Of a stretch of DNA of 64,000 bases, positions 3,302 to 47,763 are shown piece by piece. Under the pieces are notes generated by a model. It ran no database searches and was not told where the DNA came from. It worked only from the letters and a program-made list of their open reading frames with translations. The stretch is taken from positions 114,488 to 178,487 of IMG/VR virus record IMGVR_UViG_3300009103_001934; one strand, 5' to 3'. The stretch's first letter is position 1; each line of letters starts with the position of its first letter. This DNA is from a virus. The translations under genes were made by a program, and so were the position numbers.

Positions 3302-3494
3302 CCCATCTCCACTGGAATGTCAAGAAAAAAATGCCCCAGACCCGTCCTTGAGAATGAGTCTCATTTGCGATTTTTAAGAAAATAACAAAGAAAAATGCTA
3401 ATTTTATTCATTTTAATAATTTTAATTGCAATTATAGATATTTTTACGAATAATCTTGACACAAATTAGGAAATAGTTCAATATATTTAATAAC

Positions 3495-3734
3495 ATGACT
3501 GCTCCCAAAAAGAAAACCAAGAAAAATAAATATAAGTTAGATGAAGCTGGACTAAAACTCGCCCAACGCTACGAAATGGCATGGCATAAGTTGTTTTATT
3601 CTAAAAGTAGATGGACACAAGAAGAAATAATTAATGAGCCGCATGGTAGACACGCGAATGAGTTTGCCAAGGAAGTAAGAAGGATGGCAGAGAACAATAG
3701 TATAGATATAAAAGTAAGTGGGAAGATTTATTAA
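3495..3734 (+). CDS. Hypothetical basic protein
   Basis: 79-aa ORF behind TTGACA-17-CAATAT. Confidence 0.7.
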   Translation: MTAPKKKTKKNKYKLDEAGLKLAQRYEMAWHKLFYSKSRWTQEEIINEPHGRHANEFAKEVRRMAENNSIDIKVSGKIY

Positions 3735-3796
3735 ATTTAATTTTATTATTTTATTTACTTGACCTCAACTTGGATAACCCTTATACTGGTTGAAGG

Positions 3797-4084
3797 ATGA
3801 ACGAAAAGAAAAAACGTAAATCGGGTGCGGGTCGGAAGAAAGGGAGCGTTAGCTTCTGTATGGTTCCCCTCACAGAGTTAGTATCCAAACTGCCTAGCGG
3901 GGCAATTATCGTAGTGAGTAGGAAGTTCTGCGAATCTATGGGTATCGAGGGGCAACCTGTCGTATCCACGCCGACCATGATGATGCCTCTTGCTACTGCT
4001 GCCAAAGCTAATGCCGTACAGGTTACTGACTTGAATGAAAGTAAGAAAGAAACCGCGCCAGACTTTAGCGTTGACAACTGGTAA
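3797..4084 (+). CDS. Small protein with AT-hook-like basic N-terminus
   Basis: KKKRKSGAGRKKGS; own promoter TTGACC-17-TATACT. Confidence 0.7.
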   Translation: MNEKKKRKSGAGRKKGSVSFCMVPLTELVSKLPSGAIIVVSRKFCESMGIEGQPVVSTPTMMMPLATAAKANAVQVTDLNESKKETAPDFSVDNW

Positions 4085-4107: not shown

Positions 4108-5082
4108 ATGAGTGAAACCTACTTCCCAGATATAATTGGTCAGAACCGTGTCAAAAAAGCGTTGGGCTTTTATATTGACGGTTATCAAGAAACGAATTGC
4201 ATACCGCATCTGATGTTTACTGCACCTCGCGGGTGCGGCAAGACTACGATGGCAACTGCTATGGCAAAGAACCTTGTTGGGCCTGACGGTGCGATTAAGC
4301 CTCTTATTACTATCAACTGTTCTACCATCAAGAGCCTCAAGCAGTTTTTCAATATGATTGTGATACCTCATATGGTTGAGCGTGATGCCACCGTGCTGTT
4401 TGACGAATGTTCTGAATTGCCCAAGGATGTGACGATGGCACTACTGACCATCACCAACCCTAATCCAGAGAACCAGAACGAGTTCTCCTATGAGGACTAT
4501 AACGTGGTGTTTGACTTTCGCCGCTTGAGCTTCATGTTCGCCACTACCGAAGGGCAAAGTATCTTCCATGCACTCATGGACAGAATGGAGCGCATCGACT
4601 TGGAAGAATATAAGTTAGATGAACTTGGTAAGATTGTGTTGCTTGGATTAGACGGTTATACTGTCGAGCAAAAAACGCTAGAGAGTATTTCTAACGTCCT
4701 GCGAGGCAACGCCCGTGCTGGTCAGAAAATGGCGATGAAGATGCGCCTATACCTTGATGCTAAAGGTCAGACTCATTTTGCCGACAAGGATTGGAAGGAA
4801 CTTATGGACAAGCTCGGTATCCTGCCGCTTGGCATCTCCGTCCAAGAACTCAACCTCATGCGTTACATGGCGCGGAAGAAGGCAACTCGCCTTACCGAAC
4901 TCGCCGCAATCACTGGACTCTCCAAGGGAGCAATCCAAAAAGATTATGAGTTATATCTCTCCAAAATGGGTCTAATGGAGATACAACCAGAGGGTCGCTC
5001 CCTCACAACAAAAGGATTGGAGTATCTTAATGACCTCGATGGAGTTAAAAAGAACAAGTCTAACAAGGCTAGTAAAAAATAA
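4108..5082 (+). CDS. ruvB: RuvB-like AAA+ branch-migration ATPase
   Basis: DIIGQ, Walker A APRGCGKT, Walker B LFDE, FATTE, LMDRM arginine finger, RGNAR sensor II, C-terminal ELYL...GRSLT; promoter TTGACA-17-TACAAT. Confidence 0.85.
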   Translation: MSETYFPDIIGQNRVKKALGFYIDGYQETNCIPHLMFTAPRGCGKTTMATAMAKNLVGPDGAIKPLITINCSTIKSLKQFFNMIVIPHMVERDATVLFDECSELPKDVTMALLTITNPNPENQNEFSYEDYNVVFDFRRLSFMFATTEGQSIFHALMDRMERIDLEEYKLDELGKIVLLGLDGYTVEQKTLESISNVLRGNARAGQKMAMKMRLYLDAKGQTHFADKDWKELMDKLGILPLGISVQELNLMRYMARKKATRLTELAAITGLSKGAIQKDYELYLSKMGLMEIQPEGRSLTTKGLEYLNDLDGVKKNKSNKASKK

Positions 5083-5110
5083 ATATAAAATAGATGATGA
5101 GCCTATACGG

Positions 5111-5332
5111 ATGTCTGATTACGAATGGCGCGGCACATTAAATAATAGTGATTTATTTGTAGTTATTAAATATAACCTTGGTGCTTGGAAAGTAAAATAT
5201 GCTGAAACAGAATACGATCTAAATAATGTAGATTATATATATGTAGCGCAAGAATGGAGTCCGATGAAGTATATTATAAATAAAGATAAGATAGAAATAA
5301 ATAACTTAATAACATTTTTAGGATGGAAATAA
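5111..5332 (+). CDS. Hypothetical protein (start uncertain)
   Basis: AT-rich ORF; first in-frame ATG beyond the ruvB overlap. Confidence 0.5.
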   Translation: MSDYEWRGTLNNSDLFVVIKYNLGAWKVKYAETEYDLNNVDYIYVAQEWSPMKYIINKDKIEINNLITFLGWK

Positions 5333-5378
5333 ATAAAAATAAACTTGAATTTAGTCAGGAAGTAGGCTAATATATAGA

Positions 5379-5451
5379 TGTGGGTGCAACGCCCACAGTT
5401 CGTTCATCATCATCGAATCCTCCTGCGGGAAACTGCGGGGGGATTTTTTTT
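5379..5451 (+). ncRNA. Candidate ~73-nt small regulatory RNA
   Basis: Promoter TTGAAT(5345)-17-TAATAT(5368); 5' hairpin TGTGGG/CCCACA; unpaired linker GTTCGTTCATCATCATCGA; terminator with G-U pairs valid only on + strand, then T8. Confidence 0.75.
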
Positions 5452-5690
5452 GTATTTTCTTTAAAACAGTGTAAATAATAATAAGACCTTGCTAAATAAA
5501 TAAATAAGGCAAGCTCAACAGGTTATGTTCAAATAAGCTTTGTAGAATAGGTTCGTCAAATATAGAACTGAAATAAAGTAAAAATAAAACAGGCCCAAAT
5601 AAGGTAAGGTTTAAACTAAATGAGAGTCAATCTCAACGTCCCTCCTTTATGCTAATGAGACTCATTCTCAATTTCACCGGTCCCGATGTT

Positions 5691-5793
5691 GGCAATCAAA
5701 ATTCCAAGAAAATGATCGACAAACTATTTTGCCGCTCACGAATGATCGACAAACAAATTTGCCAATCAAAATCTTCCCAAAATGATCGACAAA
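5691..5793. repeat. Helically phased iteron-like repeats
   Basis: AATGATCGACAAA at 5711, 5741, 5781 (30 and 40 bp apart); CAATCAAAAT at 5693 and 5763. Confidence 0.85.
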
Positions 5794-5810
5794 AAAAAGT
5801 AAAAAAAGGC

Positions 5811-5839
5811 TTGCACTAAAATGGGATGTACGGTATACT
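5811..5839 (+). promoter_or_regulatory. Sigma70-type promoter of the long RNA
   Basis: TTGCAC-17-TATACT. Confidence 0.75.
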
Positions 5840-5845
5840 ATTAAA

Positions 5846-6256
5846 ACAGTGAGGGTAACACCTCCACGATCTTTGAGACAATTTAAGAAGGCGACTGTGG
5901 TAGTCCTCACGCAAGTGAGTGCCCTCGCGGGAAAGCCCCCAGTGGAAGCGCGACGAAACTGGACGGTGATACGATACCGGAGGGATGGGGTTCGACTCCT
6001 CACGCCCTAACAATTTAAGCCTTGGGTGACGGAACAAACGTCCGACAGAGGAAACGGCCCAAGCAATTTTTACTCCGGCGACGGTTGGAGTAAGGGAATG
6101 GCTGAATAACCCTCCATCATAAGGGGTAAGGCACAGGGCCGCGCGTTAGAGTGCAATCGTATGAGGCGCGTGGTTCTGGTAGACTGGTAAACTTGAACTG
6201 TATTGTGCACTGGTCTTGATGGTAATGCAGCAATCCATCTTCCCATTAATTTAGCA
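5846..6256 (+). ncRNA. Large structured ncRNA candidate (family unassigned)
   Basis: No + strand ORF of 60 aa or more; dense hairpins (CTCAC-GCAA-GTGAG, CCAGT/ACTGG, CTTGGG/CCCAAG, TTACTCC/GGAGTAA, GATGG/CCATC) and a T-arm-like TGGGG-TTCGACT-CCTCA. Confidence 0.7.
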
Positions 6257-7754: not shown

Positions 7755-7991
7755 ATGATGAACGAATTAGATCAACTCAAAGAAGACATTTGCATGAAGA
7801 GCTTCGGTCGCAGCCGAAGTCTCGCGCTAGCCGCAGGGCAGTGTGTTAAGTGTGGAACCTATGACCTCGACTTTCGCGATGAACCATCGCAACGTGAGTA
7901 CAAACTCACCGTGTGGTGTCAGTCGTGCCAAGACGATTTCTTCGGGCTGGATTCGGACGGTGAAATCGCATGGGAGGAGGATGAGGATTAA
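7755..7991 (+). CDS. Small Zn-finger protein, leaderless
   Basis: CVKC...CQSC; ATG 6 nt after -10 TACTAT. Confidence 0.75.
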   Translation: MMNELDQLKEDICMKSFGRSRSLALAAGQCVKCGTYDLDFRDEPSQREYKLTVWCQSCQDDFFGLDSDGEIAWEEDED

Positions 7992-8827: not shown

Positions 8828-9259
8828 ATGATGATGGACGATATAAAACTGACCTACATTCCAGACTCTCACGACTGGATTAAAGTATATTTGCAAGCAC
8901 CTAACGCAGAACTTGCCGAGGCGTGGTTTAATTCCTTTTGGAATCACAACGCTACAAGCCAAGACGAGCCAGAATGGATATTCAAAAACGAGTTGGCATT
9001 TTGTACCACTTGGGACAAGCTAACCAAGGCCATGAATGATATTTTTCTTTTCATCCTTCTTAATGATGATGAAGATGCTTTCAAAGGCGAGGAAGGCGGC
9101 GCGATGCCGTTTGCCAAGGAACTAGCCAAGGCCAAGATTGCAGAGATGAACAAAAAAGATTCATCCATGCGCTACGGTCGCCAAGGTCACGTTTACACAC
9201 TCGGCGATGTTTACACCAACGAGGAAAAGTCATTTTCTTCTGGAACGTGCGACGTTTAA
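8828..9259 (+). CDS. Hypothetical protein, leaderless
   Basis: TTGACA-17-GATAAT then ATGATGATG. Confidence 0.75.
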   Translation: MMMDDIKLTYIPDSHDWIKVYLQAPNAELAEAWFNSFWNHNATSQDEPEWIFKNELAFCTTWDKLTKAMNDIFLFILLNDDEDAFKGEEGGAMPFAKELAKAKIAEMNKKDSSMRYGRQGHVYTLGDVYTNEEKSFSSGTCDV

Positions 9260-10128: not shown

Positions 10129-10214
10129 CTTTGTTATTTTTTTATTTGACACAAAGTCGGAAGTGGGGTATTATATAAACAGTGCGAACGAACTAACTAA
10201 AACTAAAAAAACTG

Positions 10215-11608: not shown

Positions 11609-11818
11609 TTAGTCCTTCCAGACCATGTCCAGATATTCACCGTAAGTAGCAAGGTAATCCTGCCATTCGGTGTCCGTCATTAGCGGCCCATGGATTGCAA
11701 CCAGATTCGCCCAACGATCTTGGGTTTCCTGTTCGCGTGTCCACTCTTCATGCTCAAGCTGAGCTTCGATGTCTGCACTTATGGTCTCTTCTATGGTTGG
11801 CATCATGTCGTTCATCAT
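11609..11818 (-). CDS. Small acidic protein, leaderless (MMNDMM...)
   Basis: Minus-strand TTGTGC-17-TATATT 7 nt before ATG at 11818. Confidence 0.7.
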   Translation of the reverse strand: MMNDMMPTIEETISADIEAQLEHEEWTREQETQDRWANLVAIHGPLMTDTEWQDYLATYGEYLDMVWKD

Positions 11819-12011: not shown

Positions 12012-12200
12012 ATGATGAACGATCCATATAGCCAGATAACCAGCGGAGACCGTGACAACCTGCGTGCGGAGTTTGACGAACAAATGGCGATAATTGACGG
12101 CGCGAATAACCCTGACATGATTTGGGTTCGTGGCACCCTGCCCTATGATGATGAGGGTGTACGGTGCGGGTGCGAAGACTACCCCTGTTGTGGGCATTAG
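12012..12200 (+). CDS. Small protein with C-terminal CxCEDYPCCGH metal-binding motif, leaderless
   Basis: TTGACA-17-TATATT then ATG after 6 nt. Confidence 0.75.
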   Translation: MMNDPYSQITSGDRDNLRAEFDEQMAIIDGANNPDMIWVRGTLPYDDEGVRCGCEDYPCCGH

Positions 12201-12562: not shown

Positions 12563-12598
12563 GTGGGACTGCGGATGTCCCACCCAGTATGCTATACT
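12563..12598 (+). promoter_or_regulatory. Operator-type promoter 1 (GTGGGAC-N7-GTCCCAC, TG-C-TATACT)
   Basis: Four near-identical copies (12563, 14017, 14492, 15651). Confidence 0.8.
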
Positions 12599-12604
12599 AG
12601 ACGC

Positions 12605-13060
12605 ATGATAATTAAGAACGAGATGAAAGAAAAACTAAAACCACTATTTGACCTAGACGGAACCCTTATCCGCGAGGAGCGCGGCTCAGATCGCCTATTT
12701 GATTTCCTACGGCCTCACGCTATTCTTAATCTCACAGAACACGACCTCACTCCTCTCGGAGTGTTAGTCAGAGACTCAGGCAAAGAATTTGACATTCTTA
12801 CAGCACGCGGCCCAGAGAATGCGCAGTTTATCCGTATAGCTCTTGAAGCTCTCGGATTCAACGTCGGTCGAATCGTAACCGTAGGCGTAGACATTAACGA
12901 GCCAAAGGATTGGGCTAATGTTAGCAGCAAAAGAGTAGCGGCAAAGAAAATCAGAATTGCCAAATTCGTCCAAAGGAAATTGGTTGACAACGATGCTAGG
13001 AATCTGGTAGGATTAGGAGAGTTAGGAGAGCTAGTAGCTCAAGACCAAACAGAGTTTTAA
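12605..13060 (+). CDS. HAD-superfamily phosphatase-like protein
   Basis: FDLDGTL motif I, ILTARG motif II, VDND. Confidence 0.75.
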   Translation: MIIKNEMKEKLKPLFDLDGTLIREERGSDRLFDFLRPHAILNLTEHDLTPLGVLVRDSGKEFDILTARGPENAQFIRIALEALGFNVGRIVTVGVDINEPKDWANVSSKRVAAKKIRIAKFVQRKLVDNDARNLVGLGELGELVAQDQTEF

Positions 13061-13061
13061 G

Positions 13062-13316
13062 ATGATGAATAAGATTATTACAATTAAAGCAAAAGCCAAC
13101 GCAAGCCGGCGCACTAAAAACCGCATTCGTGGATTTGGCCCACGTTTCATCGTAGAGAAGAAACATGACCTTAATGACATCATGGCCCTTATCGGCAAGC
13201 GTGATTCAGAGTCTTGGTTGCTGCGCGAAGTGGGCGGCCCAGACGGTGATCCGTGGTTTGGCTGGCTGCCAGCTAATGAATTTGAAATTGTTGAAACTGA
13301 AGGATTTTGGTCTTGA
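13062..13316 (+). CDS. Conserved small phage protein
   Basis: NASRRTKNRI...GWLP. Confidence 0.7.
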   Translation: MMNKIITIKAKANASRRTKNRIRGFGPRFIVEKKHDLNDIMALIGKRDSESWLLREVGGPDGDPWFGWLPANEFEIVETEGFWS

Positions 13317-13349: not shown

Positions 13350-13574
13350 ATGATGAAGAAACACAACATACAAAACGCAAGCGTATTTGCCACAAAGCAA
13401 TTACGCGACAATCTTAACAAAGTGCTTACTCGCAAAGAGCGGCAACAACTTGACGAAAAAGATGCTAAAACAAAATGGTATCTTGAATTGATGATTGCTG
13501 CTTGTCTCGGTGCTGCTCTTGCCCTTGGCTTTGTAGTCGCTCACGGTATGCTCACAACTGACTGGACTTGGTAA
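13350..13574 (+). CDS. Small single-TM protein
   Basis: LMIAACLGAALALGFVVA. Confidence 0.7.
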   Translation: MMKKHNIQNASVFATKQLRDNLNKVLTRKERQQLDEKDAKTKWYLELMIAACLGAALALGFVVAHGMLTTDWTW

Positions 13575-14545: not shown

Positions 14546-14836
14546 ATGGAAAAGAACAAGATGAACGAAACGATGACAGTAGAACAAGAAGCCCAACTCC
14601 TCCTTAATCAGGATGTACGCGTGACATTCGCGCAAAGCCAATTTTGGAACTGCACAGGTCGTGTGCGTAACATCATGGCCGATGGTCGCACACTTGAGAT
14701 TGACCTTGATTGGGACGGCAAGACCGTTCTTCTCGATGTCACCTTCGTGGGTGAGATTCAAGAGCGGACACAGTTCGCCAAGACCGAGCAAAGCCTCGGC
14801 CCAATCGCTAACAGTGTTGTAAAGTCTACCCTTTAA
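14546..14836 (+). CDS. Small SH3/Sm-like beta protein
   Basis: LLNQDVRVTF...TGRVRNIMADGRTLEIDLD. Confidence 0.65.
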   Translation: MEKNKMNETMTVEQEAQLLLNQDVRVTFAQSQFWNCTGRVRNIMADGRTLEIDLDWDGKTVLLDVTFVGEIQERTQFAKTEQSLGPIANSVVKSTL

Positions 14837-42504: not shown

Positions 42505-44046
42505 ATGGCAGATAACACCTATAGCCCGCAAACCCCGCCAATACAGGATTTAGATTATAAATCTTTCGGTCCGGATAGCATGGACGAAAACAAAAAACTG
42601 ATGGTTTATAACGATGGGTCCGTATTGGTTGAAAATATAGAAGAGCGAACTGCGGACGGGCTAAGCTACGAATTGGATAAAAAGAATAATTATGTTTATT
42701 TTTCAAATAACTTAGATGCCAATACTAAGGTAAAATATATCCCTAAAAACGTAGATAAAGTTTATTGTACTACTATTAATAAAACCTTTTCTATCAAAGG
42801 GGCTTTGGCTGTTTTTAAAAATGACGTAAGAAAGTTTATTGTTAAAAATTTAGATAGATACAAAACATCTAAGAAGTCACTCAAAAAAGAGATAGACAAG
42901 ATCCTACTAAAGAAAAATCAATTTCTTTGGACCGAAAAAAGACTAAGTAGCGAATGGAACAAAACTTACGTTGATAGCGTTACTCTAGGACCGTATAGCT
43001 GCGACACCACCCTAACCGTTACCAAAGATATAGAAATGATTAATGACTTAATAGTTATTAAAACAGGGGATTGGGGCCAGCTTTATGACTCGAAAACAAA
43101 AAAGATGAACACGGTAGCTCGCGCAGGAAAAATTGTTTGGGTATCTCCCCACGAAATTTTAAATTATTCCGGAGAGGCAAATTATTATTCAAGCGGTGAA
43201 GTATGGACCTATAACACAACTAACAGCGGTGTGTATTCAGGAGAAACTTTTTTGAATGTAAGTTATGGAGTAGGAAACAATAGGGAATCTTACGGTTTAT
43301 CTTCTCGGTTTATAAAAATTCCAAAAGACACTCAGATTAAGACTGAATTTCCATATGAAGAAATCCCAAGAGACGAAACACAATTATTTCTTGACACTCG
43401 TCAGGGGGTGGGGATTGAAAAACAATTTTTTAATGGTATATATTCAGAGTGGGATTGGGCTCAAAGGGTATTAACTGGGACTTGGGATGGAGTCGTTCCT
43501 TCGGGTTCATATATTGAATTGCAAACTTGGTCTACAAACCCTCAGTTCGTTGGCTTTAATGGAGAAATTACTGTTAAGCCTGTAGATACCACTTTAGTCG
43601 AGGATATTGATTTGTCTTACAATATAAGCGCTACAGCGTCGGATTTAAATTATCAAGCTTCAGTGAGAAAGGCGGTACAAAAGGCCAAAAATGTTTTTTA
43701 TAAAAAATTGAACAAACACTTGGTCTCTAAAGGCCTAAAGAAAAAATCTTCAAACCTTAAGAGGTATGATAAGATGCTGGAAAGAGTAGCTCAAAATGTA
43801 TACGATGGATTATCTTTTGTGAGAAATGAAAATATAGCAAAAATACAAGGCTTAGAAAGTAACCCCTTAGATGGACCGATATATTACGACGGCACAGCCA
43901 AAATGTATGGAGGAAGTAAGGAAGAGGCAGACTATGATTACTCACGAACAAAATCACAAAGAAGTTATTTAGGCTTGAATCCATCAAGCACGTCGCAATC
44001 TACCTCATCCAAGACGAACGCTGGAGACATGGGAGGAAGTTATTAA
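42505..44046 (+). CDS. Large hypothetical virion-associated protein
   Basis: Start after a GTGTAA motif; the upstream ORF-track extension crosses the terminator. Confidence 0.75.
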   Translation: MADNTYSPQTPPIQDLDYKSFGPDSMDENKKLMVYNDGSVLVENIEERTADGLSYELDKKNNYVYFSNNLDANTKVKYIPKNVDKVYCTTINKTFSIKGALAVFKNDVRKFIVKNLDRYKTSKKSLKKEIDKILLKKNQFLWTEKRLSSEWNKTYVDSVTLGPYSCDTTLTVTKDIEMINDLIVIKTGDWGQLYDSKTKKMNTVARAGKIVWVSPHEILNYSGEANYYSSGEVWTYNTTNSGVYSGETFLNVSYGVGNNRESYGLSSRFIKIPKDTQIKTEFPYEEIPRDETQLFLDTRQGVGIEKQFFNGIYSEWDWAQRVLTGTWDGVVPSGSYIELQTWSTNPQFVGFNGEITVKPVDTTLVEDIDLSYNISATASDLNYQASVRKAVQKAKNVFYKKLNKHLVSKGLKKKSSNLKRYDKMLERVAQNVYDGLSFVRNENIAKIQGLESNPLDGPIYYDGTAKMYGGSKEEADYDYSRTKSQRSYLGLNPSSTSQSTSSKTNAGDMGGSY

Positions 44047-45821
44047 TGAGCTTTAAAACAAATAGAGTTAACAGAAATTTTGTTTTAACAACAAATTTAT
44101 ATTTTAATAGTAGCTCTTGGAATAGGTCTGGAGATACTACTCCTAGATTTTATTTAAAACCTTCGAACCTTACTCATCTAGAAAAAGTAGCTTTTAACTA
44201 CAGCGGAGCGAAAGCTAATGACTATGTAAAACGAGGGCATAAATTTTGGGGATATAAAAAAGATGATACCCTTACTAATAAAGAGGTCCTAGAGCATTAT
44301 GATCAAATTAAAACATCTTATCCATATGGATTTGTACAGGGAGATATAGCGAGCGAGAATAAATATAATATTGATGTAAAAAATAATGATGCTTTTCAGT
44401 CTTTTTACAAATCTTATTGGGATAATAATCCAGATAAGATAAAACAACCCAAAAAGGATACGAAAGGCGAATGGGATCACCCTCACCCTTATATATCTTT
44501 TACGACAAATGAAATTATTACCGCGAAACATAATGTAGGTACGGTCCCGGTTTTAGAGGCGGGAATACCGACATGGGCCGAATATGGCGTTGGCACCCCT
44601 TACTATTCTCAACCAGAAGCCTATTCATGCATGGATCAAAACTTAAGCGCAGTTGCTTATGATTATTATGGCGATAATAAACTCGCTTTTATTATTGAAG
44701 GCGGCGCGCATATGCCCTTAGTGCTAGCTAACAGTGGTCATTCTTATACATTTAATTTACAAAGTGGCGCTACTCCATGGGCTACCTCTAATGTGTGGCC
44801 CACAGGGGTCGGAGGAGCACACTCAGGAATAGATTTACACTTTAGCACTGGAAGGGATGGCACTTGGAATGGTTTCGACAAATTGGATGACGGCGTAGCC
44901 GGTGACGCGTTTATTAGAAGAGCATACGAAAAACCGGGCACACACACCTATTACGTATCCTCTGCAGTTAAAGACGGTGATCCAAATACCGGGCATCCTT
45001 GGTATAATTCAGGTAGCGTTTCTGGATTTGTTATAAGTGGTGAAAGCCAACAGTCTGGACCATTAAATTTATATAGGGGTTGGACCTATGTTTTCAATCT
45101 AACTGGATCCTCTAACGTGTCTGAGCGAGGAACGGATGGCAATTCACAAAACGCTGGAGGGGACTATGATCGTAGCGCGTTATACTTCACTAATAGCCTT
45201 GTATCGGGCGAGTGGGGAAATGAATCTGAAAACGAACTTGGCGGCGGGATTTGGGCAACCGGTATCGGCGCAGGAATTTATACAATTAGTTTGGACTGGG
45301 ACTGTCCAGACACCTTCTTTTATCAAAATAGATATGCTGCGTATTATGGCGGCGTAGTAAACGTAACTGATCCTCCTACAGCTTTGGGTGATAAGCCGGG
45401 GCAAATAGTAAGGATCACCTTAAGCGGGGGTAAAGACGAATATCTATTTTATTATTCTCCTAATCAATCTGGAATGGGAGGATTAATGATACTAAAGGGA
45501 ACTTGCGACGGTAAAGTGGCGAGTATTTAAATAAAAAACTTTTTGCATAACATTTTAATATGTGTTATAATAAATTAGATTGGCCGTATTGGGTGAACTC
45601 GGTAGAACTCTCTCGTAGACAATACCGAGCCAAGCCGGAAGTGGGCTTAGTGCTTCCGGAAGGTGTAGAGACTAGAGGGTGAGTCCCAACAATAACCCCT
45701 CCACGAGCGCCCAACACCGTAAAGGTGAAGATATAGTCCGAACTGCATGGCGACATGTAGAAGTCGTAATTAAAAAAGCGTCGATAACAACTTGGACTAC
45801 GAGATGAGTGCAGCGTACTAA
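44046..45821 (+). CDS. Gly/aromatic-rich structural protein split by a group I intron (exons 44046-45512, 45795-45821)
   Basis: Splicing joins ...TCDG to DYEMSAAY-stop in frame; the unspliced ORF stops at 45530. Confidence 0.7.
45513..45794 (+). ncRNA. Group I self-splicing intron (IA-like, no homing endonuclease)
   Basis: P4 CTCGGT/ACCGAG, P3 TTGGGTG/CGCCCAA, R GTAGAGACTA, P7.1 hairpin, S AAGATATAGTCC, P9 CTGCATG-GCGA-CATGTAG, terminal G; P1 ACGGU/GCCGU with U-G at the splice site. Confidence 0.9.
45543..45571 (+). promoter_or_regulatory. Consensus-like sigma70 promoter inside intron L1
   Basis: TTGCAT-17-TATAAT with extended TG. Confidence 0.7.
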
Positions 45822-46683: not shown

Positions 46684-47763
46684 ATGTCAGATCAGAATTA
46701 CAAAGTTGACGTCGTACTCTCTGGTGCACAACAAACCAGCGTAGTCGTTGGTGGACCACCCTCAGTTAACGTCTCCGTGGGAGGAGCATCGAGTACCTCT
46801 GTTCAACAAGGCGCGACGAGTGCCTCGGTTTTATCAACCACACCAACCGCACACCCGACTGTAGGATTTGTGGGCGTACAAGGCCCCCCGGGAGAAATGG
46901 TATTCGCCAAGGGGGATCACGGTCAAATACAATATAATAGGCTGGGTTATATATCTGGCGTATCAAATTTTTTCTTTTATCCTGAAGCAAATAATTTATA
47001 TTTAAGCGGGGGATTGTTGTCTTCAAGAGGGGGTAAGTTTCAAATAACTGGTCTAGCTGTAGACACTGGAGCCTTTTTATTAAGGGATCCCGGAAATGAT
47101 AAAAATTTATTTAAAATAGATACAACTAATAAAAGAATCTCTATATCAGATACAACTACGGCTAATGAATATTATGTAGGAATAGGAACTGGGGTCGCTC
47201 GAGAGAGACTCCATGTCGCAGGAGGTAACTTAAGGGTCGATGGGGATATAGTTTTAGGGGGTAATATAGTCCCAACAGAAAGCGGTATTTATAACTTGGG
47301 CTCGCCCACTAGGCCTTTTAAAGAATTATATATTGAGGGGGATTCTATTCATTTTGTGAATTCTCAATCGAAAATTTCTGCCAGTTCAGATGGATTTGCG
47401 TTTACTACCCAAGAGGACGATGGTACACAAAAAGTACTTTTTCAGGTGACAAATGAAGGCGTGCATGCTGATGGATCTCTAATTACTGGCGTACCGTATA
47501 CTGGATTGAGAGACGGTGGAGCCTATTTGTCTTTTGACGTCCCAGATAAGGCGGCTAGTTTAGAAATAGATTACGGAAAAACTCTTAATTATGACCCACA
47601 AGTCCTATGCGATTTGGAGCCTCCACAGGGAAAAAATGAAATTTATTTTACGTCAGTACATAATGTAGAAAGAACTGGCTGTAACGTGTTCTTTAGTAAT
47701 AAAATCAGCGGAAATGGTTATATTTTGAATTGTCACGTGGGACCGAGGAATCCGCTTTTCTAG
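46684..47763 (+). CDS. Tail-fibre-like protein
   Basis: VGIGTGVARERLHVAGG, GNIVP...YNLGSP; C-terminal H-type-lectin-like segment. Confidence 0.7.
   Translation: MSDQNYKVDVVLSGAQQTSVVVGGPPSVNVSVGGASSTSVQQGATSASVLSTTPTAHPTVGFVGVQGPPGEMVFAKGDHGQIQYNRLGYISGVSNFFFYPEANNLYLSGGLLSSRGGKFQITGLAVDTGAFLLRDPGNDKNLFKIDTTNKRISISDTTTANEYYVGIGTGVARERLHVAGGNLRVDGDIVLGGNIVPTESGIYNLGSPTRPFKELYIEGDSIHFVNSQSKISASSDGFAFTTQEDDGTQKVLFQVTNEGVHADGSLITGVPYTGLRDGGAYLSFDVPDKAASLEIDYGKTLNYDPQVLCDLEPPQGKNEIYFTSVHNVERTGCNVFFSNKISGNGYILNCHVGPRNPLF

Follow-up and report, generated by a model that had tools for sequence, protein, structure and literature searches.

The window, that is, the whole stretch of DNA analysed (the last 64 kb of the 178,487-bp IMG/VR virus record IMGVR_UViG_3300009103_001934), carries at positions 5380–5451 a segment that is, as judged from its fold and covariation, a new, discrete plus-strand small RNA gene with a predicted product of ~72 nt. 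The RNA comprises two hairpins separated by an unpaired seed, and this seed mirrors the shared AUGAUGAACGA starts of a set of small genes. The reading preferred here, to which a probability of roughly 0.55 is given, is that the RNA is a trans-acting antisense regulator that would bind the 5′ ends of leaderless mRNAs and repress the genes carrying this tag. One small RNA governing a regulon of tagged genes had been proposed in a first-pass annotation of the same DNA; the RNA gene and the mirrored gene starts were confirmed, and repression is retained as the probable direction of the effect.

The promoter, 5′ hairpin, linker and terminator named in that annotation were all recovered, each in its place (Table 1). 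The plus strand of 5380–5451 folds at −34.4 kcal/mol (z = −5.28), a value equalled by none of 200 shuffled sequences; the minus strand of the element gives z = 0.11 and no fold. The mean unpaired probability of the linker in the ensemble is 0.95. An attenuator or riboswitch was considered and dropped, as the fold shows no alternative pairing for the linker. Transcription from the promoter-like region is predicted to begin at about 5380, which is the base of the 5′ hairpin. This region matches the sigma-70 consensus at 8 of 12 positions, lies below the threshold of the promoter scan and is unlisted there; its assignment is supported by conservation. The element starts 13 nt past the stop codon of ORF 5030–5332, part of the upstream clamp-loader operon, and the promoter scan contains no minus-strand promoter near it. 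The motif GGAA(G/A)T(A/G)G, a possible site for a shared regulator, is found in the spacer immediately 5′ of the −10 hexamer in three promoters (3426–3454, 5345–5373 and 10146–10174). A transcript from the 10146 promoter would begin with GUGCGAACGAACU, of which 9 nt are complementary to the sRNA seed.

Table 1. Positions in the window of the parts of the RNA element and of the genes whose starts are complementary to its seed (energies in kcal/mol; ddG from cofolding).
Feature	Position	Strand	Details
Promoter-like region	5345–5373	+	TTGAAT 5345–5350, 17-nt spacer, TAATAT 5368–5373
5′ hairpin	5380–5396	+	7 bp, loop CAA
Single-stranded seed	5397–5414	+	Three CAU repeats; linker GTTCGTTCATCATCATCGA = 5398–5416
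Intrinsic terminator	5415–5451	+	Stem of 13–14 bp (5415–5446), 4-nt loop, U8 tail 5444–5451
Gene A, predicted best target	7755–7991	+	78-aa CxxC...CxxC protein; predicted leaderless mRNA; pairs at 7755–7768
143-aa ORF, predicted target	8828–9259	+	AUGAUGAUGGACGA (8828–8841), 14 bp including one G–U
62-aa ORF, predicted target	12012–12200	+	Predicted leaderless; 11 bp at 12012–12022; −15.4; ddG −14.9
69-aa ORF, predicted target	11609–11818	−	11 bp at 11818–11808; −15.4; ddG −14.2
95-aa ORF, weaker predicted target	3797–4084	+	GAUGAACGAA (3796–3805), 10 bp; −14.7; ddG −10.2
74-aa ORF, weak predicted target	13350–13574	+	GAUGAUGAA, 9 bp; −16.1 with bulges; ddG −11.6
91-aa ORF, weak predicted target	14561–14836	+	10 bp at 14560–14569; −14.7; other promoter type
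84-aa ORF, weak predicted target	13062–13316	+	9 bp at 13061–13069; −13.8

No family was found at the element at the gathering cutoff of Rfam 15, the only matches in the window being the manA motif and a group I intron, and the known Rfam families, including phage c4, CI, OOP and sar-type RNAs and host sRNAs, gave no match to it. In a permissive Rfam search the best match at the element was rli38, scoring 28.4 bits and thus below the cutoff of 49 (E = 0.21). A cis-antisense RNA of the lambda OOP or P22 sar type was rejected: the opposite strand of the element contains no conserved ORF, and the targets lie 1.6–9 kb away. The group I intron (RF00028, 61.6 bits) is located at 45523–45760 (+), at the junction of ORFs 44046–45530 and 46684–47763.

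The alignment of the RNA comprises 20 distinct versions from three viral and 23 marine metagenome contigs. The viral relatives were found through the neighbouring clamp-loader protein, and the metagenome contigs with a search pattern that contained the promoter only, the seed being left out; all 23 contigs recovered carry the element. A seed that varied in relatives had been named in the first-pass annotation as evidence against its proposal; a 25-nt block at 5398–5422 (GTTCGTTCATCATCATCGAATCCTC) is identical in 20 of 20 versions. Both helices covary, with 99.8% of cells paired and seven pairs changed on both sides across these versions; none of 500 shuffles was as good, and slid controls were 50–65% paired. 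In the 5′ hairpin 100% of cells are paired, three of the seven pairs show changes on both sides, and U–G/G–U pairs assign it to the plus strand; in the terminator the corresponding values are 99.6% and four pairs. Several helix pairs are G–U in most sequences and would be A–C on the opposite strand; therefore, the functional strand is the plus strand. In the four genomes derived through the clamp loader, the promoter region is almost invariant and the tract is invariant, and the end of the upstream ORF and both stems diverge. Conservation stops at the U-tract; the sequence directly 3′ of it is variable, which marks the end of the RNA unit. Homologues with a changed seed were found neither in an alignment of gene A against viral contigs, which returned the same three relatives only, nor with a covariance model in seven more distant loci. 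As a separate observation, the window at 5530–5680 and the relatives share a conserved non-coding stretch of ~200 nt 3′ of the sRNA with repeated small hairpins, whose loops keep TAAATAT and whose stems compensate (for example, GGTTCG...GAACT and GGCTCG...GAGTC).

The motif CCUCCU (5419–5424) had been taken for an anti-Shine–Dalgarno sequence, by which the RNA would mirror a whole AGGAGG-N5-AUG initiation region. This idea was abandoned: the motif lies inside the terminator stem, where it undergoes compensatory drift, and reads CCUCUC in 12 of the 20 versions. Moreover, an SD core precedes 27 of 152 long ORFs (18%) vs 12.7% of random positions, and the phage therefore scarcely uses SD sequences.

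All gene-start matches of the first-pass annotation are exact, and each marks the beginning of a genuine ORF (62–143 aa). With gene A, the seed forms a predicted duplex of 14 bp (12 Watson–Crick pairs, a G–U and an A–U) with an energy of −18.2 kcal/mol and a cofold ddG of −16.6; position 13 of gene A is C or U, and either letter pairs with a seed G. The duplex with the 8828 gene reaches −20.6 kcal/mol in the energy scan, and its cofold ddG is −19.2. In the cofolds both hairpins of the RNA are kept and the seed pairs with nt 1–14 of the mRNA, the ddG being −14 to −19 for the four main targets vs −0.4 to −11 for untagged neighbours. The 11-mer ATGATGAACGA is expected 0.068 times on both strands of the genome (second-order Markov model) and is found four times: at the RNA locus in the antisense orientation and at 7755, 12012 and 11818 (minus strand), the last three being promoter-proximal starts. 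The exact 11–12-mers are located at ORF starts 4–9 nt past −10 hexamers.

In predicted pairing with the seed, leaderless-type starts are enriched: 8 of 34 pair at −13.8 kcal/mol or better (5 of 31 without the three starts added from the first-pass list), the next best reaching −11.5, and 1.4% of random ATG-headed 18-mers reach −14 kcal/mol. The genome-wide energies are not striking; the whole-genome scan does not discriminate and is therefore not counted as evidence, since many unrelated non-start sites reach −17 to −20 kcal/mol. Many GC-rich, bulged duplexes score in this range, and the strongest site apart from the RNA locus itself (8457, minus strand, −23.9) lies opposite a plus-strand gene. 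At position 12 of the tag the families have any of the four letters (A/C/G/T), so selection for pairing past 11 nt is not evident. Pairing of the seed with the 5′ region of 16S rRNA, suggested by a possible 8-nt similarity, was considered and dropped.

Many small ORFs in the first 16,000 nt of the window stand behind strong TTGACA-17-TATAnT promoters, and the promoter scan detected 49 promoter-like sites vs 28 ± 5.5 in shuffles. Since ATG lies only 4–9 nt 3′ of the −10 hexamer at 10 of the 13 strong promoters between 3.7 and 14.3 kb, the mRNAs of these promoters should be leaderless or nearly so. Of the listed targets, 7755, 8828, 12012 and 11818 (minus strand) are predicted to be leaderless, ATG following shortly past the −10 hexamer (at 8828 the hexamer ends 4 nt before ATG); 13062 and 14561 have leaders of ~25–45 nt and are not leaderless.

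The tag is linked to the promoter. In each of the three related genomes, the 11-mer heads two to three promoter-proximal ORF starts, and a control pattern gave no matches; the tag is shared by at least five small-gene families that are unrelated to one another. One case is a HAD-like gene that is 95% identical between genomes (window 12563–13060 vs L017 10492–10929). In relatives G001 and G002 it has the start ATGATGAACGAG and a leaderless TTGACA-type promoter, and in the window it has the start ATGAAAGAA, a different promoter and a leader. As the same gene is found with different promoters and first codons, the tag belongs to the promoter cassette and not to the protein; by this comparison, a promoter-plus-start cassette is swapped at the HAD-like gene. 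The 11818 (minus-strand) gene and the 12012 gene are divergently oriented, with a palindromic module common to both between them; the orthologue of the 11818 gene in G001 lies on the plus strand. Eight copies of the palindrome CGGGACCGGTCCCG occur beside TTGACA promoters in the window (6360, 7663, 8577, 10097, 11919, 12232, 13956 and 15312). The palindrome sits in a ~70-nt module (TTTTTGCTTGACA...TGTCAAGCTTTTTTT) that stands between cassettes of small genes and is found again where relatives show recombination breakpoints. In sequence, the RNA locus resembles the gene starts within the unpaired tract only, and the resemblance does not reach into the flanks.

In nearly all relatives the RNA is followed at ~400 nt by gene A on the same strand; the 78-aa gene A product matches no Pfam family. 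The window differs in that ~2.3 kb, made up of a manA RNA and a DUF932 gene, is inserted between the two. The manA motif is full-length (RF01745, 6071–6249 (+), 77.9 bits vs a cutoff of 55.2) and lies within a 1.3-kb non-coding stretch between the sRNA and the DUF932 gene. The repeat ATGATCGACAAA occurs three times, at 5712, 5742 and 5782 (+), interleaved with two copies of TTG(G/C)CAATCAAAAT; at the syntenic place in a distant relative (L069 3040–3130) the same repeat is reversed and occurs three times as TTGTCGATCA. These repeats resemble iterons or operator sites for a DNA-binding protein. A gene of the same relative in a gene A-type neighbourhood (L069 8642–8809) has a weak match to Pfam ArfA.

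The tag extends beyond the range of the RNA. Gene A has 908 homologues with the N-termini MMNEL, MLNEL, MMNTL and others. In the seven more distant loci, the covariance model of the RNA gave nothing at E < 1, and ATG(ATG)AACGA heads several leaderless genes there; the gene A start is ATGATGAACGAA in three of these loci and changed in four. The tag is thus older than, or independent of, the sRNA, and other forces, for example promoter escape, the efficiency of leaderless initiation or a protein, also maintain it. Locus L057 gives a weak model match (E ~1) and contains a hairpin, linker and terminator at the same place, with an unrelated linker and no promoter. In L064, the clamp-loader operon is followed by a terminator (3686–3726; L071 and L072 have the identical sequence) whose 16-nt loop carries an anti-tag, GUCGUUCAUC; leaderless genes of that locus have starts, ATGAACGAC/ATGAACGAA, to which the anti-tag is complementary. 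This element occupies a spot syntenic to the sRNA, differs from it in structure and was found in identical copies only; its anti-tag terminator is a hint of a second element in favour of the antisense reading. In a distant relative in a Flavobacteriales MAG, no RNA was found downstream of the 35%-identical clamp loader, and a seed match with three mismatches lies in an unrelated context.

The phage itself is distant from cultured ones: a distant-mode blastn search of 5000–6000 against 50,697 phage records gave no match to isolated phages, and its terminase is <27% identical to that of any isolate. The closest relatives are three viral contigs, detected by protein search, and many marine metagenome contigs; a 69%-identical terminase is encoded on a contig binned into a Flavobacteriales MAG. 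Relatives co-bin with Bacteroidota or Flavobacteriales MAGs, which, together with the scarcity of SD sequences, is a possible clue to the host, co-binning being weak evidence. Host mRNAs had also been suggested as targets, a suggestion that gained no support: in one cellular MAG with related phage contigs, the tag occurs at chance level (3 vs 1 for the control) and outside promoter context. A tRNA and tmRNA search of the window found none; elsewhere in the phage genome (G000:C1 70910–71327, 81422–87067) a tmRNA with the tag ...EEELQLAA and three tRNAs (Arg-TCT, Ile-TAT and Leu-TAA) are encoded.

According to the proposed mechanism, the 5380–5451 RNA would consist of a protective 5′ hairpin, an unpaired seed of 18–25 nt (GUUCGUUCAUCAUCAUCGA...) and a Rho-independent terminator. 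The trans partner of the seed would be the very 5′ end (AUGAUGAACGA...) of phage mRNAs whose transcription starts at the start codon or a few nucleotides from it. The main partner would be gene A, a small zinc-ribbon gene and apparently the ancestral neighbour of the RNA; the other partners would be genes that have acquired the promoter-plus-tag cassette, namely 8828, 12012 and 11818 (minus strand) and, weakly, 3797 and 13350. Ribosomes recognise a leaderless mRNA by its 5′-terminal AUG alone, and an 11–14-bp duplex that buries this AUG should therefore block 70S binding; it may also alter decay that depends on the 5′ end. The outcome would be joint down-regulation of the tagged gene set. We infer that the RNA is transcribed and that it pairs with these messages in vivo; repression, as the direction of the effect, and the timing of the control are likewise conjectured. 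A broader proposal, held more tentatively and at rather less than even odds, is that the regulon consists of a portable cassette (promoter plus AUGAUGAACGA) and one master sRNA capping the 5′-terminal start codon, so that any gene recombined behind the cassette would become leaderless and at the same time join it, its translation being shut off by the sRNA; leaderless translation controlled by an sRNA would then be described for the first time.

The evidence for the trans-acting repressor has to be weighed against other readings of the same locus. The RNA might be a dedicated local regulator of gene A alone, acting in trans or, on terminator read-through, in cis by sequestering the downstream start with its seed, and the other matches might be by-products of a promoter-plus-tag cassette spreading for other reasons. 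Such a restriction is suggested by the almost constant distance and shared strand of gene A, by 14-nt pairing with just gene A and 8828 (9–11 nt for the others), by the retention of M-M/L-N-E-L at the protein level in the gene A homologues, far past the range of the RNA, and by the frequency of the tag in loci that lack the sRNA. It is nevertheless unlikely: the RNA is unchanged in the window despite the insertion before gene A, gene A has its own promoter, and the perfect 11-bp duplexes with 12012 and 11818 (minus strand), with a ddG of about −14 to −15 kcal/mol, lie in the usual range of sRNA seeds. Slightly less probable still is that the RNA is real but its seed acts elsewhere, on a host mRNA or other RNA, a protein or rRNA, the tag being kept for reasons of DNA or initiation (as an initial transcribed sequence, for leaderless initiation or as a protein operator at +1 to +11) and the complementarity reflecting descent by cassette copying. 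A relic copy does not fit a similarity limited to the unpaired tract, which agrees with selection for pairing; a DNA operator need not sit exactly between two covarying RNA helices; and the one candidate cellular genome shows no enrichment of the tag. What speaks for this reading is the tag in distant relatives without the RNA, its movement with the promoter and the length of the invariant block, which at 25 nt exceeds any phage match (≤14 nt), so that other partners may constrain CAUCGAAUCCUC.

The remaining two explanations, which dispense with a separate antisense RNA, are considerably weaker. The invariance of the linker and the promoter-like region, while stems and flanks change, makes it improbable that the locus is a mere terminator of the clamp-loader operon with a stabilising hairpin and chance complementarity, even though it directly follows ORF 5030–5332, its promoter is a poor match to the consensus, and the distant hairpin–linker–terminator with an unrelated linker has no promoter at all. 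Chance is also opposed by the rarity expected of the 11-mer and by the enrichment at leaderless starts, and an RNA derived from a 3′ UTR would carry the seed too. Less credible again is a minus-strand micro-ORF (MMMNELWALHPHLYISLLPD) as the real gene, served by AGGAGG-N5-ATG, an option that the first-pass annotation had set against its own proposal. An SD-like AGGAGG does lie 5 nt before the minus-strand ATG; however, the frame has 6, 15 or 20 aa in relatives, where 1-nt indels shift it and its amino-acid changes are non-conservative and follow the compensatory changes of the RNA. The G–U pairs, moreover, exist on the plus strand only, no minus-strand promoter is near and the phage hardly uses SD sequences.

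If the trans-acting repressor is real, membership of the regulon would be acquired by cassette shuffling, a simple viral route to co-regulate unrelated genes via a start-codon tag and a promoter, and the locus would provide a portable repression module for leaderless expression systems. With a 72-nt RNA, an 11–14-nt tag and 4–8 natural targets, it is a compact test case, and it bears on the open question of gene-by-gene control of leaderless mRNAs. The element also adds a well-supported new RNA family, with 20 variants and covariation, from abundant uncultured marine phages.

Among known systems, the c4 antisense RNA of phages P1 and P7, reportedly described by Citron & Schuster in 1990, is the closest functional analogue. 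The c4 RNA is ~70–77 nt long; through short unpaired tracts it binds complementary sites where translation of a phage gene starts, shortly downstream on the same strand, and so blocks expression of that gene. It is cut from the transcript of its own target, uses two loop sequences and masks the SD-type site of icd-ant, with a role in lysogenic immunity. Both c4 and the window RNA are small structured phage RNAs with an unpaired tract, sites in start regions and a downstream gene on the same strand. Unlike c4, the window RNA has one linear seed between two hairpins, with an apparent promoter and terminator of its own, and several dispersed predicted targets; the masked site would be the 5′-terminal AUG of predicted leaderless mRNAs. 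A purely functional analogy exists with T4 RegB, a protein endoribonuclease that inactivates many early mRNAs via GGAG in SD sequences: in both cases a phage factor would act on many mRNAs through a short motif shared by their initiation regions. In contrast to RegB, the factor in the window is an RNA, predicted to pair with start-codon tags in a phage scarcely using SD sequences.

DicF of Qin is a multi-target trans-encoded prophage sRNA. Other trans-encoded sRNAs of phages and prophages with multiple targets are VpdS of vibriophage VP882 and PreS of lambda (PMC12197685), and the same review covers c4 as a phage antisense RNA. With VpdS, PreS and DicF, the window RNA shares a conserved seed, an intrinsic terminator, predicted imperfect 9–14-bp pairing near several start codons and, apparently, the form of an independent small unit. 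These three RNAs require Hfq, and most of their targets are host mRNAs with a 5′ UTR and an SD site, whereas the window RNA is predicted to pair with leaderless mRNAs of the phage itself, at a tag that travels with a promoter cassette. In T4-type phages, PeSL promoter–terminator cassettes are repeated composite modules that separate small early genes and mediate their shuffling (PMC2839356, PMC4122927). The eight CGGGACCGGTCCCG modules beside TTGACA promoters, and the same gene with different promoter and first-codon sets, are similar to them in architecture alone, with no sequence similarity implied; neither a coding-start tag nor a matching antisense sRNA is known for PeSLs.

In leaderless mRNAs, the 5′-terminal AUG is the recognition signal for 70S or for 30S-IF2, and its accessibility decides translation (PMC9031893). 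The effect of sRNAs on leaderless mRNAs is listed as ‘Unknown’ in this 2022 review, where such regulators are only predicted as possible (PMC9031893), and leaderless messages are absent from the 2025 review of phage sRNAs (PMC12197685). The window locus would be a concrete candidate for these predicted sRNA regulators of leaderless mRNAs.
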